The notes: generated from the letters alone by a model not told the origin. A stretch of DNA of 64,000 nucleotides from an uncultured Candidatus Saccharibacteria bacterium (GCA_963807025.1 CAWDZT010000010.1:25301-89300); one strand, 5' to 3'. Positions 20,916-34,228 are shown, counted from the stretch's first letter. Program-made: numbers and translations.

Positions 20916-21590
20916 ATGGCAAACAAAACTGATTCGAAAAACCCCGGGCAGGTACGCCGCGTTTCCAGCCAAGCACCGGATCCAGACGCTGATAAATCAG
21001 GGACTGAGCACCGCCATTCCGGCTGGCGCGAGTTCTTCTCTACCGCCGCCATACTGATAGGCGCCTTGCTGGTGGCTCTGTTCATCATCACCTTCGTATT
21101 CCGCTCCTACCAGGTGGACGGACCGAGCATGGAAACCACCCTGCAGAACGACGACAAGCTCATCATCTGGAAGGTCCCGCGCACCTGGGCCCGGATAACC
21201 GGCCACGACTACATACCGGACCGCGGCGACATCATCGTCTTCACCGAGAACGGACTGGGCCAGTTCGGCCAGGAAGACAGCAAACAGCTTATAAAACGGG
21301 TCATCGGCCTGCCGGGAGACCGGGTGGTCGTGCAGCGACGGCAAGTACACCATATATAACAAGGCGCATCCCAAGGGCTTCAATCCCGACGCCACCCTGC
21401 CCTATGGCAACGACATACCGAACACACCCGGCAACGTGGACGTCACCCTGGGCCAACACCAGCTGTTCGTATCCGGCGACAACCGGCCGGATTCGCTGGA
21501 TTCCCGCACATTCGGTCCGATCAACGCCGACCAGGTCATCGGCAAGCTGGTCGTGCGCGTCTTTCCGCTAGGCGGCTCCAAGATCTTTTA
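20916..21590 (+). CDS. lepB: signal peptidase I (frameshift near 21350)
   Basis: GPSMETTL (Ser box), KRVIGLPGDRV and, after the shift, SGDNRPDSLDSRTFGP. Confidence 0.8.
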
Positions 21591-21614
21591 GCGAATCGTG
21601 GTATATTGAAGCCT

Positions 21615-22485
21615 ATGAGCCAAACACCAAAGCGGGGGTTGGGCCGCGGTTTCGAATCGCTTCTGCCGGCCGACTTCGATGACAGCATCCTCCTGACGGC
21701 CGACGACCGTATAGAGAAGATTCCCGTCGGCAAGCTGGAGCCGAACCCTTACCAGCCGCGCAAACACTTCGACGACGCCGCGCTCAGGGAGTTATCGGCC
21801 TCCATCAAACGCCACGGCGTGCTTCAGCCGCTTGGTAGTCACCCCTGGAAAATCAAAAGGCGCGTACATACTGATAGCCGGCGAACGCCGCTGGCGCGCC
21901 TCCAAGCTGGCCGGCCTCAAAGAAGTCCCGGCCATCGTCCGCAGCCACAAGGAGCTGGAACAGCTGGAAGTCGCCCTGATCGAGAACGTCCAGCGCATCG
22001 ACCTTTCGCCCCCTGGAACAGGCCGTCAGCATCGAACGCCTGCACGAGCAGTTCAACCTGGGGTACGAAGACATAGCCAAGCGCCTGGGCAAGGCCAGCT
22101 CCACCGTGCAGAACACCGTGCGCCTGCTGCGTCTGTCCGAGGCCGCGCAGCGACGCCCTGGCCAAGCGCAAGATAAGCGAAGGCCACGCCCGCGCCATCC
22201 TGGCGCTCAAAGGCGACGCCGAACGCCAAGCTTATCTGTTAAAGACCATCATTGAACAGGGGTGGAGCGTCCGTCAGGCCGAGCGCTTCGTCACCAGCGT
22301 GAAGGCCGGCACCAAGGACGTCAAAAAGACCCACGAACACGTTTCGACGGAGACGCCCGAAACCAAGACAGCTGAGCAAGAAGCTCGGCGCCCCCGTTAA
22401 TATCCGCCGCACCGCCAAAGGCGGCAAGCTCGAAATCACCTTCACCTCCGACGAAGAACTTAGGCGCCTTATAGACTTTTTCTGA
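21615..22485 (+). CDS. parB: chromosome partitioning protein ParB (about 4 frame pieces)
   Basis: KRGLGRGFESLL start, GERRWRASKLAG and ALIENVQR motifs, and an HTH segment YEDIAKRLGKASSTVQN. Confidence 0.8.
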
Positions 22486-25998: not shown

Positions 25999-28899
25999 TC
26001 AAGAGGTCTGCGTGGTTCTAGCCAGACTGATGGTCAGCTCGGCGCTGTCGATCTTGACGGTGGCGCTATAGCCGTCCTTAACAGCCTCGTCCGAGGCTGG
26101 TAGCCAGGGTTTCCTGTTTGATAACATCAGCCAGGCCGGTATCTGTCAGGACGGCCTGCAGGTCTTTGTCGGAGGTTTCCAGCTGAAGATGGATGCGGTT
26201 GTCGACGTCCAGGCCGGCGTCTTTGCGGGCCTTCTGGACATGCCGCACCACTTCGCGCATCAGGCCTTCGCGTTTAAGAACAGGGGTAGCTTCGGTGTCC
26301 AGCTTGACCGCCTTGCCCCATTTGACCTCTTTGACATTGAGTTCCTCGGCGATGATATCGCGGTAGAGCGCCGGCAGTTCCGGTACGATTACGCCGGCAG
26401 AGGCTGGCGGACCTTGACCTTGGCTTCGGCGCGCTGGGCCAGGCCATCGACTATATAAGCGCGGGCGCGCTGGCCATCTCAGCGATCAGCTTCTTGTCGG
26501 CCTTGCCGGATTCCGGCCAGTCGCTTAGGTGGACGGACGCTGGCAGATCGGTACCTTCGGCCAGCTGTTGCCAGATGTGGTCCGGCAGGAACGGCGAGAA
26601 CGGAGCCAATAGCTGACAAAGGCGCAGCAAGGTGTAATGCAGGGTGGCATAGGCCTGCTGTTTGTCGGCGTCGTCTTCGCTCTTCCAGAAACGGCGGCGG
26701 GAACGGCGGACGTACCAGTTGGAAGCGTCATCCAACAACTCTGCGATGGGCCTGGTGGCCTTGTCCAGCCGATAGGCGTCCATGGCCTCCGTCACGGCCG
26801 CCGTAGCCTCGTTCAGGCGCGAGAGCATCCACTGGTCCAGGATGTTATCGCTCTTGGGTTCTACGAGCGGCTCGGAGGGCTTGTAGTGGTCCACGTCGGC
26901 GTAGAGCTTGTAGAAGTTGAAGATGTTGTTGAGCGTCATGAAGATCTTACGCTGGACGTCGCGCAGGAAGTCGGTGCTGAAGCGGGTATCTTCCCCGTTG
27001 ACCAGCGGGCTGGAAGCCATGAAGAAGCGCATGCTGTCCACGCCGTACTGGTCGAAGATGTCGTCCATGGGGGCGTAGTTCTTCTTGCGTTTGGACAGCT
27101 TTTCGCCGTCGGCGGCCACGATCCAGCCGGAACAGATGACGTTCTGGAAGGCCGGTTTGTCGAACAGCGCCGTGGCCAGCACGTGCAAGGTGTAGAACCA
27201 GCCGCGGGTCTGGTCCACCGCCTCGGCGATGAAGTCCGCCGGGAAGTTCTTCTCCCATTCGCCTTGTTCTCGAACGGATAGTGGTCCTGGGCGTAGGGCA
27301 TGGCGCCGCTCTCGAACCAGCAGTCGAACACTTCCGGTATACGCTTGGCGATCTTGCCGGAATCAGTCTTGATCTCGACGTCGTCTATGGACGGCCGGTG
27401 CAGATCGCCCACCTTCTGAGGGGTCGACGGCCCGTTTCTTAAGCTCTTCCACGCTGCCGACGACGGTGACTTCGCCGTCGTCGGTCACCCAGACCGGCAG
27501 CGGCGCGCCCCAGAAACGGTTGCGGCTGACGGCCCAGTCGCGGGCGCCACCCAGCCAGTTGCCGAAGCGGCCCTCCCTTATGTGTTCAGGTATCCAGTTG
27601 ATCTTGTCGTTATTCTTGACCAGGCGGTCGCGTACGTCGGTGACTTTGATCAGCCAGGAGTCGGTGGCGTAGTACAGAAGCGGCGTGTCACAGCGCCAGC
27701 AGAACGGATAGGTGTGCTTGATCGTCTCGGCGGCGTAAACCATGTCGCTTCTTGGTCAGGTGGGCGATTATCCGCTTATCGGCCGTTTTAAAAAATACAC
27801 CGGCTATGTCTTCGGGCAGGCCTATATCCGTAGAAACCTTGCCGTTGTCATCAATACTCAGCACAACGGGTATGTTGTGCTCTTTACCTAGCGATAAATC
27901 GTCCTCACCGAAGGCCGGCGCCACGTGCAGTATACCGCTGCCGTCCTCAATGCTCACGAACTCCGCCGGCCAAACTTTGTAGAGATTACTACGGTTTGAA
28001 TACGAATCGAGGCCTTTCAAATTGAACAAAGGTTCGTAACTGCGTCCGGCCAGCTCGCTGCCCCGCACTTCTTTGACGATGCTGTAAGTTTCGACATCCA
28101 GCGCCTCCAGCCGGTCGCGGGCCACGACCACGGTCTCTTTTTTGCCATCGTCGTCCTCCAGCTCCACGTATACGTATTTGGCGTCCGGCTTCACGGCGAT
28201 GGCGGCGTTGCCCGGCAGGCTCCACGGCGTGGTGGTCCAGCCTAACAGATAGGCGTCTTCGTCGGCCAGCTTGAACTTCACGAACAGGCTGGGGTCTTCG
28301 ACCCCGTCCTGGTAGCCCTGGTTAAGCTCGAAGTTGCTGAGCGGCGTGGCACAGCGCGGGCAGTACGGCGCACTGCGGAAGTCCTTGTACACCAGACCCT
28401 TGTCGTAGATGGTCTTGAACACATGCCAGACGCTCTCGATGTAGCTTTCGTCCAGCGTGGCGTAGGTCTTGTCGTAATCGGCCCAGCGGCCTACCCGGCG
28501 GAACATCGATCCTCCCAGAGGTCCTTGTACTTGAATACAGATTCGCGGCACTCGGCGTTGAACTTATCGATACCGTACTCGACGATGTCCTGTTTGCCCT
28601 TGAAACCGTGTTCCTTTTCGATGGCGTATTCCACCGGCAGGCCGTGCGTATCCCAGCCGATGCGCCGCGGCACGTAGTAGCCGCGCATGGTCTTGTACCG
28701 GGTGACGGTGTCTTTGATGGTAGTCTGTAACAGATGGCCGTAGTGCGGCGTGCCGTTGGCGAACGGCGGGCCGTCGTAGAAACTGAAGGTCTTGCCTTGT
28801 TCGCGCTGTTCTCAGGCTCTTTTCGAAGGTATGGTCGGCCTCCCACTCCTTGAGCAGGTCTTCCTCAATCTCGGCCAGGAAGTGTTTCTTACCTTTCAC
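25999..28899 (-). CDS. ileS: isoleucyl-tRNA synthetase (at least 6 frame pieces)
   Basis: [18 protein letters not shown] and the KMSKS variant [11 protein letters not shown] in ORF 26451..27218. Editing and N-terminal pieces are in ORFs 27363..28899. The C-terminus reads ...[13 protein letters not shown] after a shift. Confidence 0.85.
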
Positions 28900-28963
28900 G
28901 ACAGGTGTAAGTATATCACGCGACCAGGGTCGGATGGCACCTGCCCTTTAGAGCTGAAACGTA

Positions 28964-29230
28964 TTAGGCGCTGGCGTAGGCGGCGACTTCGTCCATCAGG
29001 GGCAGGTGGCCGCCCTCCCAGACTTTCTGGGGGTAGCCGTCGGTCTGAAGCACCAGGATGGCCGGATATTGGACGACATCGTACAGGCTGGCCGTGGCCG
29101 AGCCGTCGCGGGTGTCTATATCGAGTACTTCCAGCCGCCAGTCCCTGTGGCGGGACTGGAAATCGTGTATGAACTCCTCGACTACGCGGCCGTGTTCGGA
29201 TCTGGGCCGATAAAGCACAAGCACTTTCAT
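28964..29230 (-). CDS. hypothetical small protein, possibly thioredoxin-like fold without CxxC
   Basis: 88-aa ORF. A beta-alpha-beta pattern is suggested (MKVLVLYRP...). No catalytic motif. Confidence 0.3.
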   Translation of the reverse strand: MKVLVLYRPRSEHGRVVEEFIHDFQSRHRDWRLEVLDIDTRDGSATASLYDVVQYPAILVLQTDGYPQKVWEGGHLPLMDEVAAYASA

Positions 29231-29411
29231 AACGGCTTAAGTGTAGCACAAGTAGCACAAGATTTGATTAACTAATAAAAATATCATAACGACGTTAACT
29301 TATGCTAATATGGCGTTTATCATATTATTATTTAATGATTTATATCGTGACGCGCAAACATAGACCCCTAACTGCACCCGCACATTGTGCGTGCATACGG
29401 GCAAGCCAGGT

Positions 29412-29440
29412 TTGCATGCGCGACGAGGCTGTGGTATAAA
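29412..29440 (+). promoter_or_regulatory. sigma70-like promoter of the leu leader (TTGCAT-17 nt-TATAAA)
   Basis: ttgcat at 29412-29417, a 17-nt spacer, and tataaa at 29435-29440, 8 nt before the leader ATG. Confidence 0.45.
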
Positions 29441-29447
29441 CTTACGC

Positions 29448-29528
29448 ATGGCAAAAACCATGAAGCACATACAAGGACTTCTCCTCCTCGGCCTTACGGG
29501 GTTGTGCTTCAGCATGGTTGAAGCCTAG
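29448..29528 (+). CDS. leucine-rich leader peptide (26 aa: MAKTMKHIQGLLLLGLTGLCFSMVEA)
   Basis: Short ORF with 6 Leu among 10 consecutive residues (ctt ctc ctc ctc .. ctt .. ttg), upstream of leuA. It ends inside the antiterminator arm. Confidence 0.6.
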   Translation: MAKTMKHIQGLLLLGLTGLCFSMVEA

Positions 29529-29573
29529 CCCGCCCTCGCCGACCGAGAGCGCGCCCAGCACGACCCGCAACTT

Positions 29574-29609
29574 AAATCAGGCTTCAACCGAAGCCTGATT
29601 TTTAATTTT
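29574..29609 (+). terminator. rho-independent attenuator terminator upstream of leuA
   Basis: AAATCAGGCTTC-aacc-GAAGCCTGATTT followed by TTaaTTTT. GGCTTCAACC (29580-29589) can pair instead with GGTTGAAGCC (29515-29524). Confidence 0.65.
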
Positions 29610-29630
29610 GAGAGAATTGAGAGGAAACAA

Positions 29631-31151
29631 ATGTCAGAAATACCAACACCTGAATATGTAAATCTGTTCGATACTACGCTTAGAGACGGCATCCAGTCGC
29701 CAGGCATCGCGCTCACGACCGAGCAAAGTCTGCATATAGCCCAGCAGCTGGACCGCATGGGCGTAGATATCATCGAGGCCGGGTTCCCGATTTCGTCGCC
29801 GGGCAACTTCGAGGCGGTGCAAACTATCGCTCAAGAGGTACCTGGGCCTGTCATCGCCGCGTTAGCCCGGGCCGAATCCGAAGATATCAAGGTAGCGGCT
29901 GAAGCGTTGCACGATGCTGAACGGCCGCGGATACATACCTTCATATCCACATCTGACATCCATATCGAGCACCAGATGCAGACCACGCGCGAGGACGTCA
30001 AAAGGCTGGCGCGGGCCGCAGTCGCCCAAGCTAAGGAGTATGTCGACGACGTACAGTTCTCGCCCATGGACGCCACCCGCGCCGACGAGGAGTTCACTGC
30101 CGAGGTCGTCAGATTGCCATAGACGAAGGGGCTACTACCATAAATTACCCCGACACAGTCGGCTATACTGAGCCGGATGATTCGGTGATTACCTTACCCG
30201 TCAACGCCAGTACGTGCCGGCTGCTGGGTACGGCCGGCGTGGTATGCCCGGTTCACCGCCTACTACGACCTGGGCATGGCGGTCGCCAACACGTTGTTCG
30301 GCGTGAAAGCCGGCGCCGGGCAGGTCAGGGAGCCGTTAACGGTCTTGGCGAACGGGCCGGTAACGCCTCATTGGAAGAAATCGGCATGGCGCTAAGGGTC
30401 AGGCCCGACGTATACGGAGTCGAAATCGGACTCAACAGCGAAGCCATAGCCCCGACCAGCCGGATGGTCGCCCGCTATACCGGCTATCCCGTGCCTAAAA
30501 ACAAGGCTATCGTGGGTGAGAACGCCTTCGAACACGAGTGCCGGTATCCATCAGGGCGGCATATTGCGCGAGATCCGCAGTACGTTCGAAATCATGCGCG
30601 CCAAAGATGTCGGCAGGGACACCGACGGCATCGCCTTGGGCAGGCAGTCCGGCCGGTCCGCGCTTAAGCACGTATTGGAACAGGAAGGTACCTTCGATCC
30701 GGCCGTCATGAACCCGACCTTCGTGATGTTCAAGGAGCTGCCACCGGGTCGGCGGCGTTTCCCGGGAGCAGGCGGTCGAGATACACGAAGAAGCCGCGCG
30801 GCGGCAGAACAACCTACGCCCTGGACAAATATGAAGTTTCTGCCTCAGGCAACGGCAAAGAAGGTGAATATGAGCCACTGGTCACCATCAACGATGGCTC
30901 GGCCAGCAACGGAGATCGACGTGTTCTCGCTTGAGGAAGGCCATGAAGCAGGAGCCGGCGCCATCGCCGTAATTGAAGAGGACGGCCACCGCTTTACGGC
31001 TTACGGTAGGAGCGGCGGGAGTGAGAACGAAGCAAGTTTTGACGCCTACGTCAATGGCTACAATATGATCCAAAGGATCAAGGCCAGAGAGGCTGCACCT
31101 TCAAGACCTTACTTTGAACTGATTGACAGGCGGCCTGTCCGAAATCCTTAG
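29631..31151 (+). CDS. leuA: 2-isopropylmalate synthase (about 4 frame pieces)
   Basis: LFDTTLRDGIQSPG and HTFISTSDIH motifs in ORF 29631..30122. The C-terminal LeuA dimerisation/regulatory region is in ORF 30516..31151. Confidence 0.8.
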
Positions 31152-31262
31152 CTACAGCCGGTGGTGGAGCCGCAGGCGGTGCAGACGTAGTCAGCTGCCT
31201 GAGCGCTGGGTCTGGTTGCCGCAGTTGTAACAGCTTCCGGCTGGGCCTATCTGGACGCCCTG
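31148..31262 (-). repeat. degenerate tandem duplicate of the nrdJ 3' end (zinc-ribbon tail)
   Basis: 31148-31240 is about 90% identical to 31280-31370 with one indel. It would encode ..SCYNCGNQTQRSGS(C)YVCTACGSTTGCS*. The leuA stop codon lies inside it. Confidence 0.6.
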
Positions 31263-31279
31263 CGACAGGGCTTAGAGGC

Positions 31280-34228
31280 CTAGCTGCAGCCGGTGGTGGA
31301 GCCGCAGGCGGTACAGACGTAGCAGCTGCCGGAGCGCTGGGTCTGGTTGCCGCAGTTGTAGCAGATGGGCGCGGTGTCGTCCTTCTTGGCGGCTTTAGGA
31401 GCCGCCTGGGCGGCCACAGGGGCGGTCTGGACGGGTTTCGGTGCCGAAGCTGCAACCAGGGCCGGTTCGGGCTTCGGCGCCCAGTAACGGCCGGTTGCGG
31501 GTTTGCTGCATGGCCGCGGTTTCTTCGGCGGCGCCGTCGTCTCAGCACGGTCTCTCTTCGCCCAGCAGGCTGGTCTGTTCGTCGGGCATGTCGTCGATGG
31601 AAGCCAGGCCCAGCTCCAGGCGGTCGTCGAAGCTCAGGTAGCTCATCGCCAAGCGGCGGAAGATGTAGTCTACCAGGCTGGAGGCCGTGCGGATCTCCGG
31701 GTCGTCGGTGATGCCGGCGGGCGCGAACGACATGTTGGTCAGGCCGTGGACGTAGCTCTTCAGCGGTACGCCGTACTGCAGGCCGTAGCTGACCGATACG
31801 GCCAGGGCGTCCATGACGCCGGCCAGGGTGGAGCCCTGCTTGGCGATCTTCATGAAGACCTCGCCGGGGGTGCCGTCTTCGAACTCGCCTACGGTGACGT
31901 AGCCCTTGGAACCGGCCACGCGGAAGCTGAAGGTCTTGGCGTTGCGGTGCTTGGGCATCTCGCGGCGCTGGGCGCCCTTGGGTATGATCGGCGGTCCGGC
32001 GGTGACGGCCAGCGGCGGGCGCAGCGGGAGCGGCAGGCGCGGTGGCGGCCGCGGCAGCGGCCACGGGCACCTCGACCTGCGCGGTAGCGGGAACGGCCTT
32101 GTGGACGCCCGGATACGGGACGGACTGCTTTTTCGGCGTCGCCGCCCTTCTTAGCCATGCACAGCGGCTGGGCGACCTTGCAGTTGTCGCGGTAGATGGC
32201 GATGGCCTTCAGGCCCATCTGCCAGGCGTCTATGTGCAGTTGTTCGACGTCTTCGACGGAAACGTCCTCGGGCATGTTGACCGTCTTGGATATGGCGCCG
32301 CTCAGGAAAGGCTGTACGGCGGACATCATCTTGACGTGGCCCAGGTAGTGGATGGCGTTGTCGCCCATAGAGCAGGCGAAGACCGGTTCGTGCTCCTTCT
32401 TGAGGCGCGGCGCGCCCAGGATGGTCTTTTCTTCGTCGATGTAAGCCACGATGTCGTCGATCTCCGGCTGTTTGTAGCCCAGGTTCTTCAGGGCGCGCGG
32501 TACCGTCTGGTTGACGATGTTCATGGTGCCGCCGCCGACCAGCTTCTTGTGCTTGACCAAGCCCAGGTCGGGCTCGATGCCGGTGGTGTCGCAGTCCATC
32601 ATCAGGCCGATGGTGCCGGTGGGGGCCAGCACGCTGGCCTGGCTGTTGCGTACGCCGTAAAGCTCGCCCAGTTCGACGGCCTCGTCCCAGGCGCCGGCGG
32701 CCGCGCTGAGCAGGTCTTCCGGTACCAGCGAGGCGTCGATCTTGGAAACTTCGGCGCGGTGCATGCTTAAGCACGTTCAGCATGCCTTCGCTGTCTTTGG
32801 CAAAGCCGGCGAACGGACCGATGCGGTTGGCTATCTTGGCGCTCACGGCGTAGCTGTGGCCGGTAAGCAGCGCCGTTATGGTGGCGGCTATGGCGCGGCC
32901 TTCGTCGGAGTCGTACGGCAGGCCCAGGGCCATCAGCAGGGCGCCCAGGTTGGCGTAGCCTATACCCAGCTCGCGGTAGGCCTTGGCGTTCTTGGTGATG
33001 GGTTCCGTCGGGTACGAGCTGTAGCCTACCAGGATCTCCTGCGAGGTGAAGATCAGTTCCACGGTGTGCATGAAGGCCTTGATGTCGAAGGTGTCGTCGT
33101 CCTTCAGGAACTTGAGCAGGTTGATGCTGGCCAGGTTACAGGCCGAGTTGTCCAGGTGCATGTACTCGCTACAGGGGTTGGAGCCGTTGATGCGGCCGGC
33201 TACCGGGCAGGTGTGCCACCGGTTGATGGTGGAATCGTACTGCATGCCGGGGTCGGCGCACTCCCAGGCGGCCTCGGCGAACTGGCGGAACAGCTCGCGG
33301 GCCTTGACCTTCTTGACCGATTTGCCGGAGGTGACGGCGCGCAGGTCCCAATCGCTGTCGTTCTGGACCGCTTCCATGAATTCGTCGGTGACGCGCACAG
33401 AGATGTTGGCGTTCTGGTACTGGACGCTGAAGCTGTCCTTGCCGTCCAGGGTCATGTCCCAGCCCAGACGTTCCAGGTCGCGCGCCTTGCGCTCTTCTAT
33501 AGCCTTGCTCCAGATGAATTCCTCGACGTCGGGGTGGTCGGAGTTCAGGATGACCATCTTGGCGGCCCGGCGGGTCTTGCCGCCGCTCTTGATGGCGCCG
33601 CGCCGAAGCGTCGGCGCCGCGCATGAAGCTAAGCGGACCGCTGGCCGTGCCGGCGCTCTTGCCGAGCGCTTCCACGCTGGAGCGTATCGGGCTGATATTG
33701 ATCCCTGAACCGCTGCCGCCCTTGAAGATCATGCCCTCTTCGACGTACCAGTTAAGGATCGCGGGCATGGTGTCGTCTATGCCCAATATGAAACAGGCGC
33801 TGGCCTGCTGGGCGCGGTCGGCGGCGCCGATGTTGAACCACACCGGGCTGTTGAAGGCGGCGCGCTGGGTGGCCAGCACGTACTTGAGCTCTTCGCGGAA
33901 ATCATCGGCCTCGGCCTCGTCCGCGAAATAGCCTTCCTGCAGACCCTGGCGGACGATGGTGTCGGCCACGCGGTCCACCAGATGCCTTAAGCGACTTCTC
34001 GCGGCCCCGGGTGCCCGGCGTGCCGGTAAAGTACTTCTGGGCCACGATGTTGATGGCATTGAGCGACCAGCTGTCCGGAAACTCGACGCCTTTCTGCTCG
34101 AACACGGCCTTGCCGGTCATAGGATTCTTGATGATCGAATCGCGCTTGACCCACTTAAGCTGGTCGTAAGCCTTGGATTTTTTGGGGGTAAAAAGTCGCT
34201 CCACCCCCAGACTGGTAGTTTGTGACAT
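31280..34228 (-). CDS. nrdJ: adenosylcobalamin-dependent (class II) ribonucleotide reductase (at least 5 frame pieces)
   Basis: Long class II RNR similarity across ORFs 33902..34243, 33169..34059, 32151..33557, 31889..32764 and 31542..31958. C-terminal tail ICYNCGNQTQRSGSCYVCTACGSTTGCS. Confidence 0.85.

Follow-up and report, generated by a model that had tools for sequence, protein, structure and literature searches.

The leuL leader of Escherichia coli carries four consecutive Leu codons. In Corynebacterium glutamicum, the monocistronic leuA gene likewise follows a leader in which four Leu codons stand in a row (PMC4046766), and the ilvBNC attenuator of the same bacterium combines a terminator, an antiterminator and an anti-antiterminator (PMC11857589). 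A further variation is seen in the leaderless polycysteine small open reading frames (sORFs) of mycobacteria, the 'Cys ribulon', where a stalled ribosome is reported to free a sequestered ribosome-binding site (10.1101/834739). Here we consider a comparable arrangement in a 64,000-nucleotide (nt) stretch of DNA (henceforth the window, with positions counted from its first letter) from an uncultured Candidatus Saccharibacteria bacterium (GCA_963807025.1, CAWDZT010000010.1:25301-89300), in which an earlier note, made from the sequence alone, had placed a leucine leader-peptide transcription attenuator upstream of leuA at 29412-29609.

Taking together the conservation of the open reading frame (ORF), the covariation of its mutually exclusive RNA helices and the match between its codons and the downstream genes, we propose that this element is very probably a ribosome-mediated leader-peptide transcription attenuator whose signal is charged tRNA-Leu. 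Among described systems, those nearest to it in style are the C. glutamicum leuA leader and ilvBNC attenuator. As judged from homologous sequences, it is a member of a family spread across the order Saccharimonadales and is not specific to leuA.

Leader anatomy and conserved helices

The promoter that the earlier note had recognized is indeed present: TTGCAT and TATAAA (29435-29440) are separated by a 17-nt spacer, with a TG at 29432-29433 extending the latter box (Table 1). To place the element in a comparative framework we built a covariance model, R1, from eight leaders, and analyzed 87 distinct copies in total. A -10-like hexamer stands 5' of the leader ATG in 68 of 82 copies, its end lying 4-11 nt from that codon (mode 7-8), and none of these 68 shows a Shine-Dalgarno (SD)-like motif before that ATG. 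Since the start codon thus coincides with the start of transcription predicted from promoter geometry and lacks an SD, the message is probably leaderless. The Leu-rich ORF of 26 codons is likewise as the note had it, encoding MAKTMKHIQGLLLLGLTGLCFSMVEA followed by a stop codon, with six Leu among residues 11-19 (CTT CTC CTC CTC .. CTT .. TTG); at the same positions, paralogous and related copies have ATT (Ile) codons, and the run is retained throughout the 87 copies, with Leu or Ile codons. CTC and ATT are both minor choices in this organism: CTC makes up 12% of the Leu codons in the long ORFs of the genome, where CTG reaches 48%, and ATT accounts for 12% among Ile codons.

Several observations indicate that this mini-ORF is maintained as a reading frame. 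The ATG is in frame with the core ..GGG YTG TGC TTC NNN ATG GTT GAA GCC in almost every one of the 87 copies, of which 82 could be scored. A frame-blind test, in which the best -10-like hexamer was taken and then the first ATG 3-15 nt downstream of it, placed the ATG in frame 0 in 57 copies, in frame 1 in three and in frame 2 in none. The distance from the ATG to the core clusters at 42, 45, 48 and 51 nt, i.e., length changes come in 3-nt steps, and the stop codon lies between zero (43 copies) and six codons past the terminal ..VEA.

At the 3' end, the 12-bp terminator and T-run of the earlier note are also in place, with the gap to the downstream gene counting 21 nt; this gap contains an SD and no promoter-like site. 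The stem is 91.7% paired across the 87 copies, with 8 of its 12 pairs changed on both sides, and a run of at least four T follows it in 85 of them. The alternative pairing that the note had seen overlapping the last leader codons proves exact: segment C, GGTTGAAGCC, which forms those codons, is the precise reverse complement of segment E, GGCTTCAACC (29580-29589), which comprises the inner 5' arm and loop of the terminator, giving a 10-bp antiterminator, C:E. This helix is 97.3% paired in the 87-copy alignment, a value that falls to 30-48% if the partner is displaced by one to three columns. Four of its pairs are changed on both sides, for instance where GGTTGGAGCC occurs with GCTCCAAC or ATGATTGAAGCC with GGCTTCAATC. 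The UGGU of segment C is invariant in nearly all copies.

While the note had captured this terminator-antiterminator pair, it had missed three further structures. One is a hairpin formed by segments 1 and 2, the putative anti-antiterminator, in whose loop the Leu codon run sits. In 82 copies its mean duplex energy is -14.3 kcal/mol versus -8.6 with shuffled 5' segments, and 66% of them score z < -2. Another is a long-range helix, B1:D, which appears in the RNAalifold consensus and is 97.2% paired in the 87 copies, with three pairs changed on both sides, one of them exchanging CG for UA in 26 copies. It shares TGTGCT with segment 2 and nothing with C:E; if B1:D and C:E both formed, the result would be an H-type pseudoknot whose loops measure 7, 31 and 13 nt. 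The third is hairpin H, just past the stop codon, which varies in sequence and in length (13-34 nt) and yet folds with a mean z of -3.1 relative to shuffles (z < -1.5 in 89% of the 87 copies); in copies with a later stop codon, that codon falls in its loop. Of these helices, B1:D and the terminator were part of the search model to which the alignment was fitted, and their pairing counts therefore lean towards structure; C:E and 1:2 were outside the model.

The 173-nt leader as a whole folds at -60.7 kcal/mol compared with -42.9 +/- 4.0 for 200 dinucleotide shuffles, none of which is as stable (z = -4.5). With this stability, and with the whole arrangement recurring in relatives, the leader exceeds what is expected by chance. 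The earlier note had set conservation of the mini-ORF and of the alternative pairing in relatives beforehand as the test of its proposal, and both are kept across the 87 copies.

Table 1. Coordinates of the predicted features of the leader and the gene that follows it (MFE, minimum free energy; positions in the window).
Feature	Position	Strand	Basis or remark
-35 hexamer TTGCAT	29412..29417	+	-35-like TTG... found in 42 of 68 related copies, 16-18 nt ahead of the -10 box
Extended -10 box TGgTATAAA	29432..29440	+	TG extension in 29 of the 68 related copies with a -10 box
Leader ORF, 26 codons and TAG, encoding MAKTMKHIQGLLLLGLTGLCFSMVEA	29448..29528	+	ATG 7 nt past the -10 box
Segment 1 (AACCATGAAGCACA), 5' arm of the anti-antiterminator hairpin	29456..29469	+	Partner 29503-29519 (MFE fold)
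Regulatory codon run CTT CTC CTC CTC (four Leu)	29478..29489	+	Further Leu codons: CTT 29493-29495, TTG 29502-29504
Segment B1 (GGGTTGTGCT), 5' arm of the extra long-range helix, overlapping segment 2	29499..29508	+	Partner 29557-29566
Segment 2 (TGTGCTTCAGCATGGTT), 3' arm of the anti-antiterminator hairpin	29503..29519	+	MFE structure and comparison of copies
Segment C (GGTTGAAGCC), antiterminator 5' arm and last leader-ORF codons	29516..29525	+	TAG follows, 29526-29528
Hairpin H, variable sequence, just past the stop codon	29528..29554	+	MFE fold and comparison of copies
Segment D (AGCACGACCC), 3' arm of helix B1:D	29557..29566	+	RNAalifold consensus and 87-copy alignment
Intrinsic terminator AAATCAGGCTTC-AACC-GAAGCCTGATTT, then TTTTTAATTTT	29574..29609	+	12 bp: 29574-29585 with 29590-29601
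Shine-Dalgarno GAGAGGA of the downstream gene	29619..29625	+	GAGAGG or GGAG after the U-run in relatives too
LeuA-like gene (2-isopropylmalate/citramalate/homocitrate synthase family)	29631..31151	+	3' end uncertain

Leader codons and the genes they precede

Across the family, the element always lies directly 5' of a gene on the same strand, and the nature of that gene goes with the codons of the leader. Counting Leu, Ile and Val in the five codons 5' of the conserved (G/S)-L-x-G-L-C-F, we found that leaders with at least two Ile codons (almost always ATT) stand before ilv-only operons in 12 cases and before LeuA-like-only genes in one, whereas those with fewer than two Ile codons stand before LeuA-like-only genes in 31 cases and before ilv-only operons in none; two more leaders precede operons with both LeuA-like and ilv genes. 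The ilv operons encode threonine dehydratase IlvA (688 bits against its NCBIfam model), a Rid-family deaminase (ridA; 104 bits) and acetolactate synthase IlvB/IlvN (739 and 62 bits), the IlvA, IlvB and IlvN scores all being above cut-off. Leu codons before LeuA-like genes and Ile codons before ilvA and ilvBN are what ribosome-mediated attenuation predicts.

Outside the window, the same genome provides a second, paralogous putative attenuator (G000:C6:101893-102016; locus L043, 1501-1624). Its leader, MTMRSTAQTRMIIISPAGLCFNMVGALRT followed by a stop codon, is of the Ile type (ATG ATT ATC ATT), and the gene directly 3' of it encodes a 365-residue protein resembling threonine/serine dehydratases dependent on pyridoxal phosphate, with scores below the NCBIfam cut-offs. 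Elsewhere in the family, the second element of locus L113 (1092-1223, minus strand) has an Ile-type leader (TCC ATT ATT CCC CGA ATT) before a LeuA-like gene, which makes the latter a candidate citramalate synthase in an isoleucine route.

In the window itself, what the earlier note called leuA is better described as a divergent and orphaned LeuA-like gene, broken across frames in the present assembly. It extends over at least three frames (29631-30122, 30185-30667 and 30516-31151), the changes being evident from tblastn with the intact homologue from locus L050. The best NCBIfam matches are 2-isopropylmalate synthase models, all below their cut-offs, and this holds for intact relatives as well as for the fragments in the window (e.g., 431 bits versus 532). 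With scores under the equivalog cut-offs and the rest of the pathway not found, we call these genes LeuA-like only. As a side observation on the 3' end of the gene in the window, the last 27 residues of the L050 protein align, in the frame of leuA, at 31233-31319 (+) and the last 12 also at 31152-31187 (+); on the plus strand this repeat reads as a duplicated LeuA C-terminus, and the 3' end given in Table 1 is therefore uncertain.

How the switch may operate, and what else it could be

Briefly, we advance the following mechanism, in which the ribosome geometry is derived from the usual footprint of about 30 nt. Transcription would start at or next to the leader ATG, with the ribosome loading on a leaderless message. 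When leucine is plentiful, the ribosome would reach the TAG and mask segment C, the terminator and its U-run would form, and transcription would end 21 nt before the LeuA-like gene. The same outcome is expected when the leader is not translated at all, as segment 1 would pair with segment 2, locking the GGTT of C and again allowing the terminator to form. When leucyl-tRNA is scarce, on the other hand, the ribosome is predicted to stall at the run of four Leu codons with a CTC in its A site. Its footprint would then cover the 3' half of segment 1 and end just before 29499, freeing both B1 and C. B1 would pair with D and C with E; E would be lost to the terminator, and RNA polymerase would read through into the gene. 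In this model B1:D might serve as a helper that keeps segment 2 off segment 1 and brings C beside E. RNA folded from 29497 to the end of E, mimicking a stalled ribosome with the terminator 3' arm not yet made, has the antiterminator as its MFE structure. On the whole, the attenuation logic put forward in the earlier note is supported by the conservation of the mini-ORF and alternative pairing and by codons that track the downstream pathway. We also entertained a direct role for the leader in occluding the downstream SD, with CUCCUCCUC pairing with the GAGAGG there; we rejected it, as Ile-type copies (AUUAUUAUU) lack such complementarity with all else kept.

A number of points weigh against attenuation as the explanation. 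At equilibrium the full-length RNA favors B1:D together with the terminator; antitermination must therefore be kinetic, as in classical systems. The association of codons with genes is phylogenetically thin, since the element tree yields one supported independent contrast and five with unsupported branches; few independent events on this tree mean that the Fisher p of 6e-10 is inflated, and the tree is too short to resolve a phylogenetic correction. Hence, the weight of this evidence lies in the direction of the match and not in its p-value. The conservation of the GLCFxMVEA peptide is inseparable from RNA constraints on the same bases. The pathway is also incomplete: no leuB was found in this genome, which is 67% complete, and leuC was found neither here nor in four relatives, of which one is 100% complete and two are complete chromosomes; an ilvC-like gene occurs in only one of these genomes and a class-IV aminotransferase-like gene in three. 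The LeuA-like enzymes are therefore orphans. Finally, about 45% of the copies precede small, poorly conserved ORFs of 50-170 amino acids (loci L057, L123, L059, L038, L105, L099, L080, L106, L046 and others). Inside many of these there is a (V/I)(P/S)Y(A/G)G(E/D) motif, and their C-terminus ends in ..(L/Y)PA before the stop. Searches of the small ORFs against Pfam and NCBIfam gave no match; they may constitute an uncharacterized family of starvation-induced small proteins.

How far, then, could other explanations account for the same locus? The very good conservation of the last nine residues and of the stop position could mean that the GLCFxMVEA-stop peptide is itself functional, either arresting the ribosome at the stop, in the manner of TnaC with tryptophan, or acting as a small hydrophobic peptide in its own right, with the Leu/Ile run as its hydrophobic segment. 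The interchange of L, I and V within the run is as one would see in such a segment, and leader peptides with functions in trans are known, peTrpL being reported as one (PMC7298713). We nevertheless hold this to be improbable: all the conserved codons of GLCFxMVEA lie inside B1:D, 1:2 or C:E, where changes are compensated in the RNA partner, while the sole codon outside the helices, x, varies non-synonymously among S, T, D, N, I and V. Moreover, the choice between Leu and Ile codons tracks the downstream pathway, and many copies have their stop codon shifted by 2-6 codons downstream.

The converse emphasis, on an RNA-only sensor, would make the ORF incidental: in a riboswitch or T-box-like element, CUC or AUU would act as specifier and the UGGU of segment C would contact the 3' end of the tRNA. 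The strength of the RNA conservation, with an extra helix and a hairpin beyond the needs of a minimal attenuator, the near-invariance of that UGGU and a codon-type run that shifts with the pathway, as T-box specifiers do, would all sit well with this. Such a sensor, however, needs neither a conserved in-frame ATG, nor 3-nt length steps, nor an in-frame stop at or after segment C, and the leaders have three to five tandem sensor codons instead of one. At about 155 nt the leader is short, with no T-box Stem I apparent by eye (a dedicated search for one was not made), and neither a T-box nor any other Rfam model matches it at the thresholds given below; we consequently rate this chance lower still. 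The least probable of all, in our estimation, is that promoter, ORF and strong terminator, which do amount to a complete small transcription unit, form an independent gene for a small hydrophobic protein, with the LeuA-like gene expressed from elsewhere and no switch involved. The short gap after the U-run, holding an SD and no promoter-like site, the covariation of the competing helices and the invariable placement of the element directly before a same-strand gene all speak against it. Ribosome-mediated attenuation remains the reading that we favor.

Distribution, genomic setting and known systems

Matches to R1 were found in 76 of 151 genomes of the same family and in 71 of 151 genomes sampled from many families of the same order, Saccharimonadales, with none in about 144 genomes from other orders of the phylum (Patescibacteria). 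When one genome per species was scanned with an exact pattern, 83 loci were obtained, nearly all from Saccharibacteria, and the related loci are Candidatus Saccharibacteria or Saccharimonadales by title. Pattern matches in Collimonas (three) and Eggerthellaceae (one) have no covariance-model match and were set aside as chance, whereas true copies also occur on contigs labelled Limnocylindria, Dormiibacterota or Verrucomicrobiia, which are taken to be mis-binned. Of 36 genomes sampled from the family, only 6 contain a LeuA-like gene; seven of nine relatives with such a gene have a homologous leader, L003 and L004 being without it. The leader in the window is intact and nearly identical to that of the same-genus genome G001.

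The scans with the Rfam Leu_leader and T-box models that the earlier note had suggested came back empty. In 29100-29750 no leader-related match was obtained at E <= 10, T-box and Leu_leader included; the only two matches, to snoR31 and an S15 leader, fall outside or on the opposite strand, with scores far short of the gathering level. Six element-bearing loci gave no match at E <= 0.1. Membership in Rfam Leu_leader (RF00512) or T-box (RF00230) is rejected for want of a covariance-model match.

With respect to its surroundings, the window lies on contig C10 of an 884-kb assembly in 10 contigs, scored as 67% complete. The leader occupies a divergent intergenic region, upstream of which come a small minus-strand ORF and then ileS. 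This small ORF (28964-29230, minus strand), whose product starts MKVLVLYRP.., had no Pfam or NCBIfam match and is kept as the divergent neighbor in L002, L005, L006, L007 and L008. The splitting of reading frames seen in the LeuA-like gene recurs in ileS (26451-28900, minus strand), nrdJ (31078-34059, minus strand) and 20916-22076. The split LeuA-like, ileS and nrdJ frames are likely to be assembly indel errors or gene decay; that several genes are affected, including the essential ileS, points to assembly indels rather than widespread decay. On the tRNA side, aragorn finds tRNA-Leu with anticodons CAG, TAA, TAG and CAA in the whole genome, and neither tRNA-Leu(GAG) nor any tRNA-Ile, from which, in an assembly 67% complete, no conclusion follows; should tRNA-Leu(GAG) really be missing, reading of the CTC and CTT sensor codons would rely on wobble.

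This element is without a model in Rfam, despite its presence in roughly half of the genomes sampled from the order; a family covariance model would annotate hundreds of loci. If attenuation operates as outlined, it would imply tight coupling of transcription and translation, probably with leaderless initiation, in reduced genomes, and would give access, in epibionts that rely on a host for amino acids, to an intrinsic read-out of how much leucine and isoleucine they receive. Many small ORFans, as well as the orphan enzymes resembling LeuA and IlvA, would also stand out as starvation-induced, giving a lead to their function. One may go further and imagine, though this is a speculation that we find possible rather than probable, a single RNA chassis retargeted between amino acids by swapping its codon run (Leu, Ile or mixed), whose antiterminated state is a pseudoknot of B1:D and C:E that pre-organizes the antiterminator. 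It would govern a starvation regulon ('ribulon') in host-dependent bacteria that do not synthesize leucine, reporting the Leu and Ile supplied by the host and switching on orphan LeuA-like and IlvA enzymes along with fast-evolving small proteins possibly involved in host interaction.

In our literature search we found no paper on amino-acid attenuators or leader peptides in Saccharibacteria or the wider Patescibacteria; in other lineages, several systems invite comparison. With enterobacterial leuL (RF00512) and with trpL, hisL, thrL and ilvL, the element shares a short ORF in which codons for the sensed amino acid stand in tandem, and with the leuL/trpL class it shares alternative helices equivalent to 1:2, 2:3 and 3:4, an intrinsic terminator that immediately precedes the first structural gene and a stop codon so positioned that a terminating ribosome would mask segment 2 of the classical scheme. 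It differs from enterobacterial leuL in having no sequence or structure match in Rfam, in an ORF that lacks an SD and begins at the predicted start of transcription, in the additional helix B1:D and the post-stop hairpin, and in preceding an orphan LeuA-like gene instead of a leuABCD operon. The resemblance to C. glutamicum lies in the Leu-rich leader peptide before leuA, in the three-hairpin logic with overlapping terminator and antiterminator, and in the existence of an ilvBN(C) version. What sets the Saccharimonadales family apart from these is that one homologous RNA chassis serves both Leu and Ile types and that the pathway context is incomplete; sequence homology to the C. glutamicum leaders was not found, no direct test for it having been made.

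The mycobacterial Cys ribulon is reported to have, likewise, a leaderless sensory sORF placed first, a stall at a codon run that alters the RNA downstream, and several loci under one principle. It acts, however, by translational control, whereas here an intrinsic terminator with a U-run is present and the downstream SD lies outside the hairpin. T-box riboswitches, too, are terminator-antiterminator switches that report tRNA charging, and a codon change retargets members of that family; the present element, which matches no Rfam model, departs from them in having an ORF that, to judge from frame conservation, is probably translated, with three to five tandem codons in place of the single Stem I specifier. 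The mechanism proposed here is a classical one, and the RNA family that would carry it is new.

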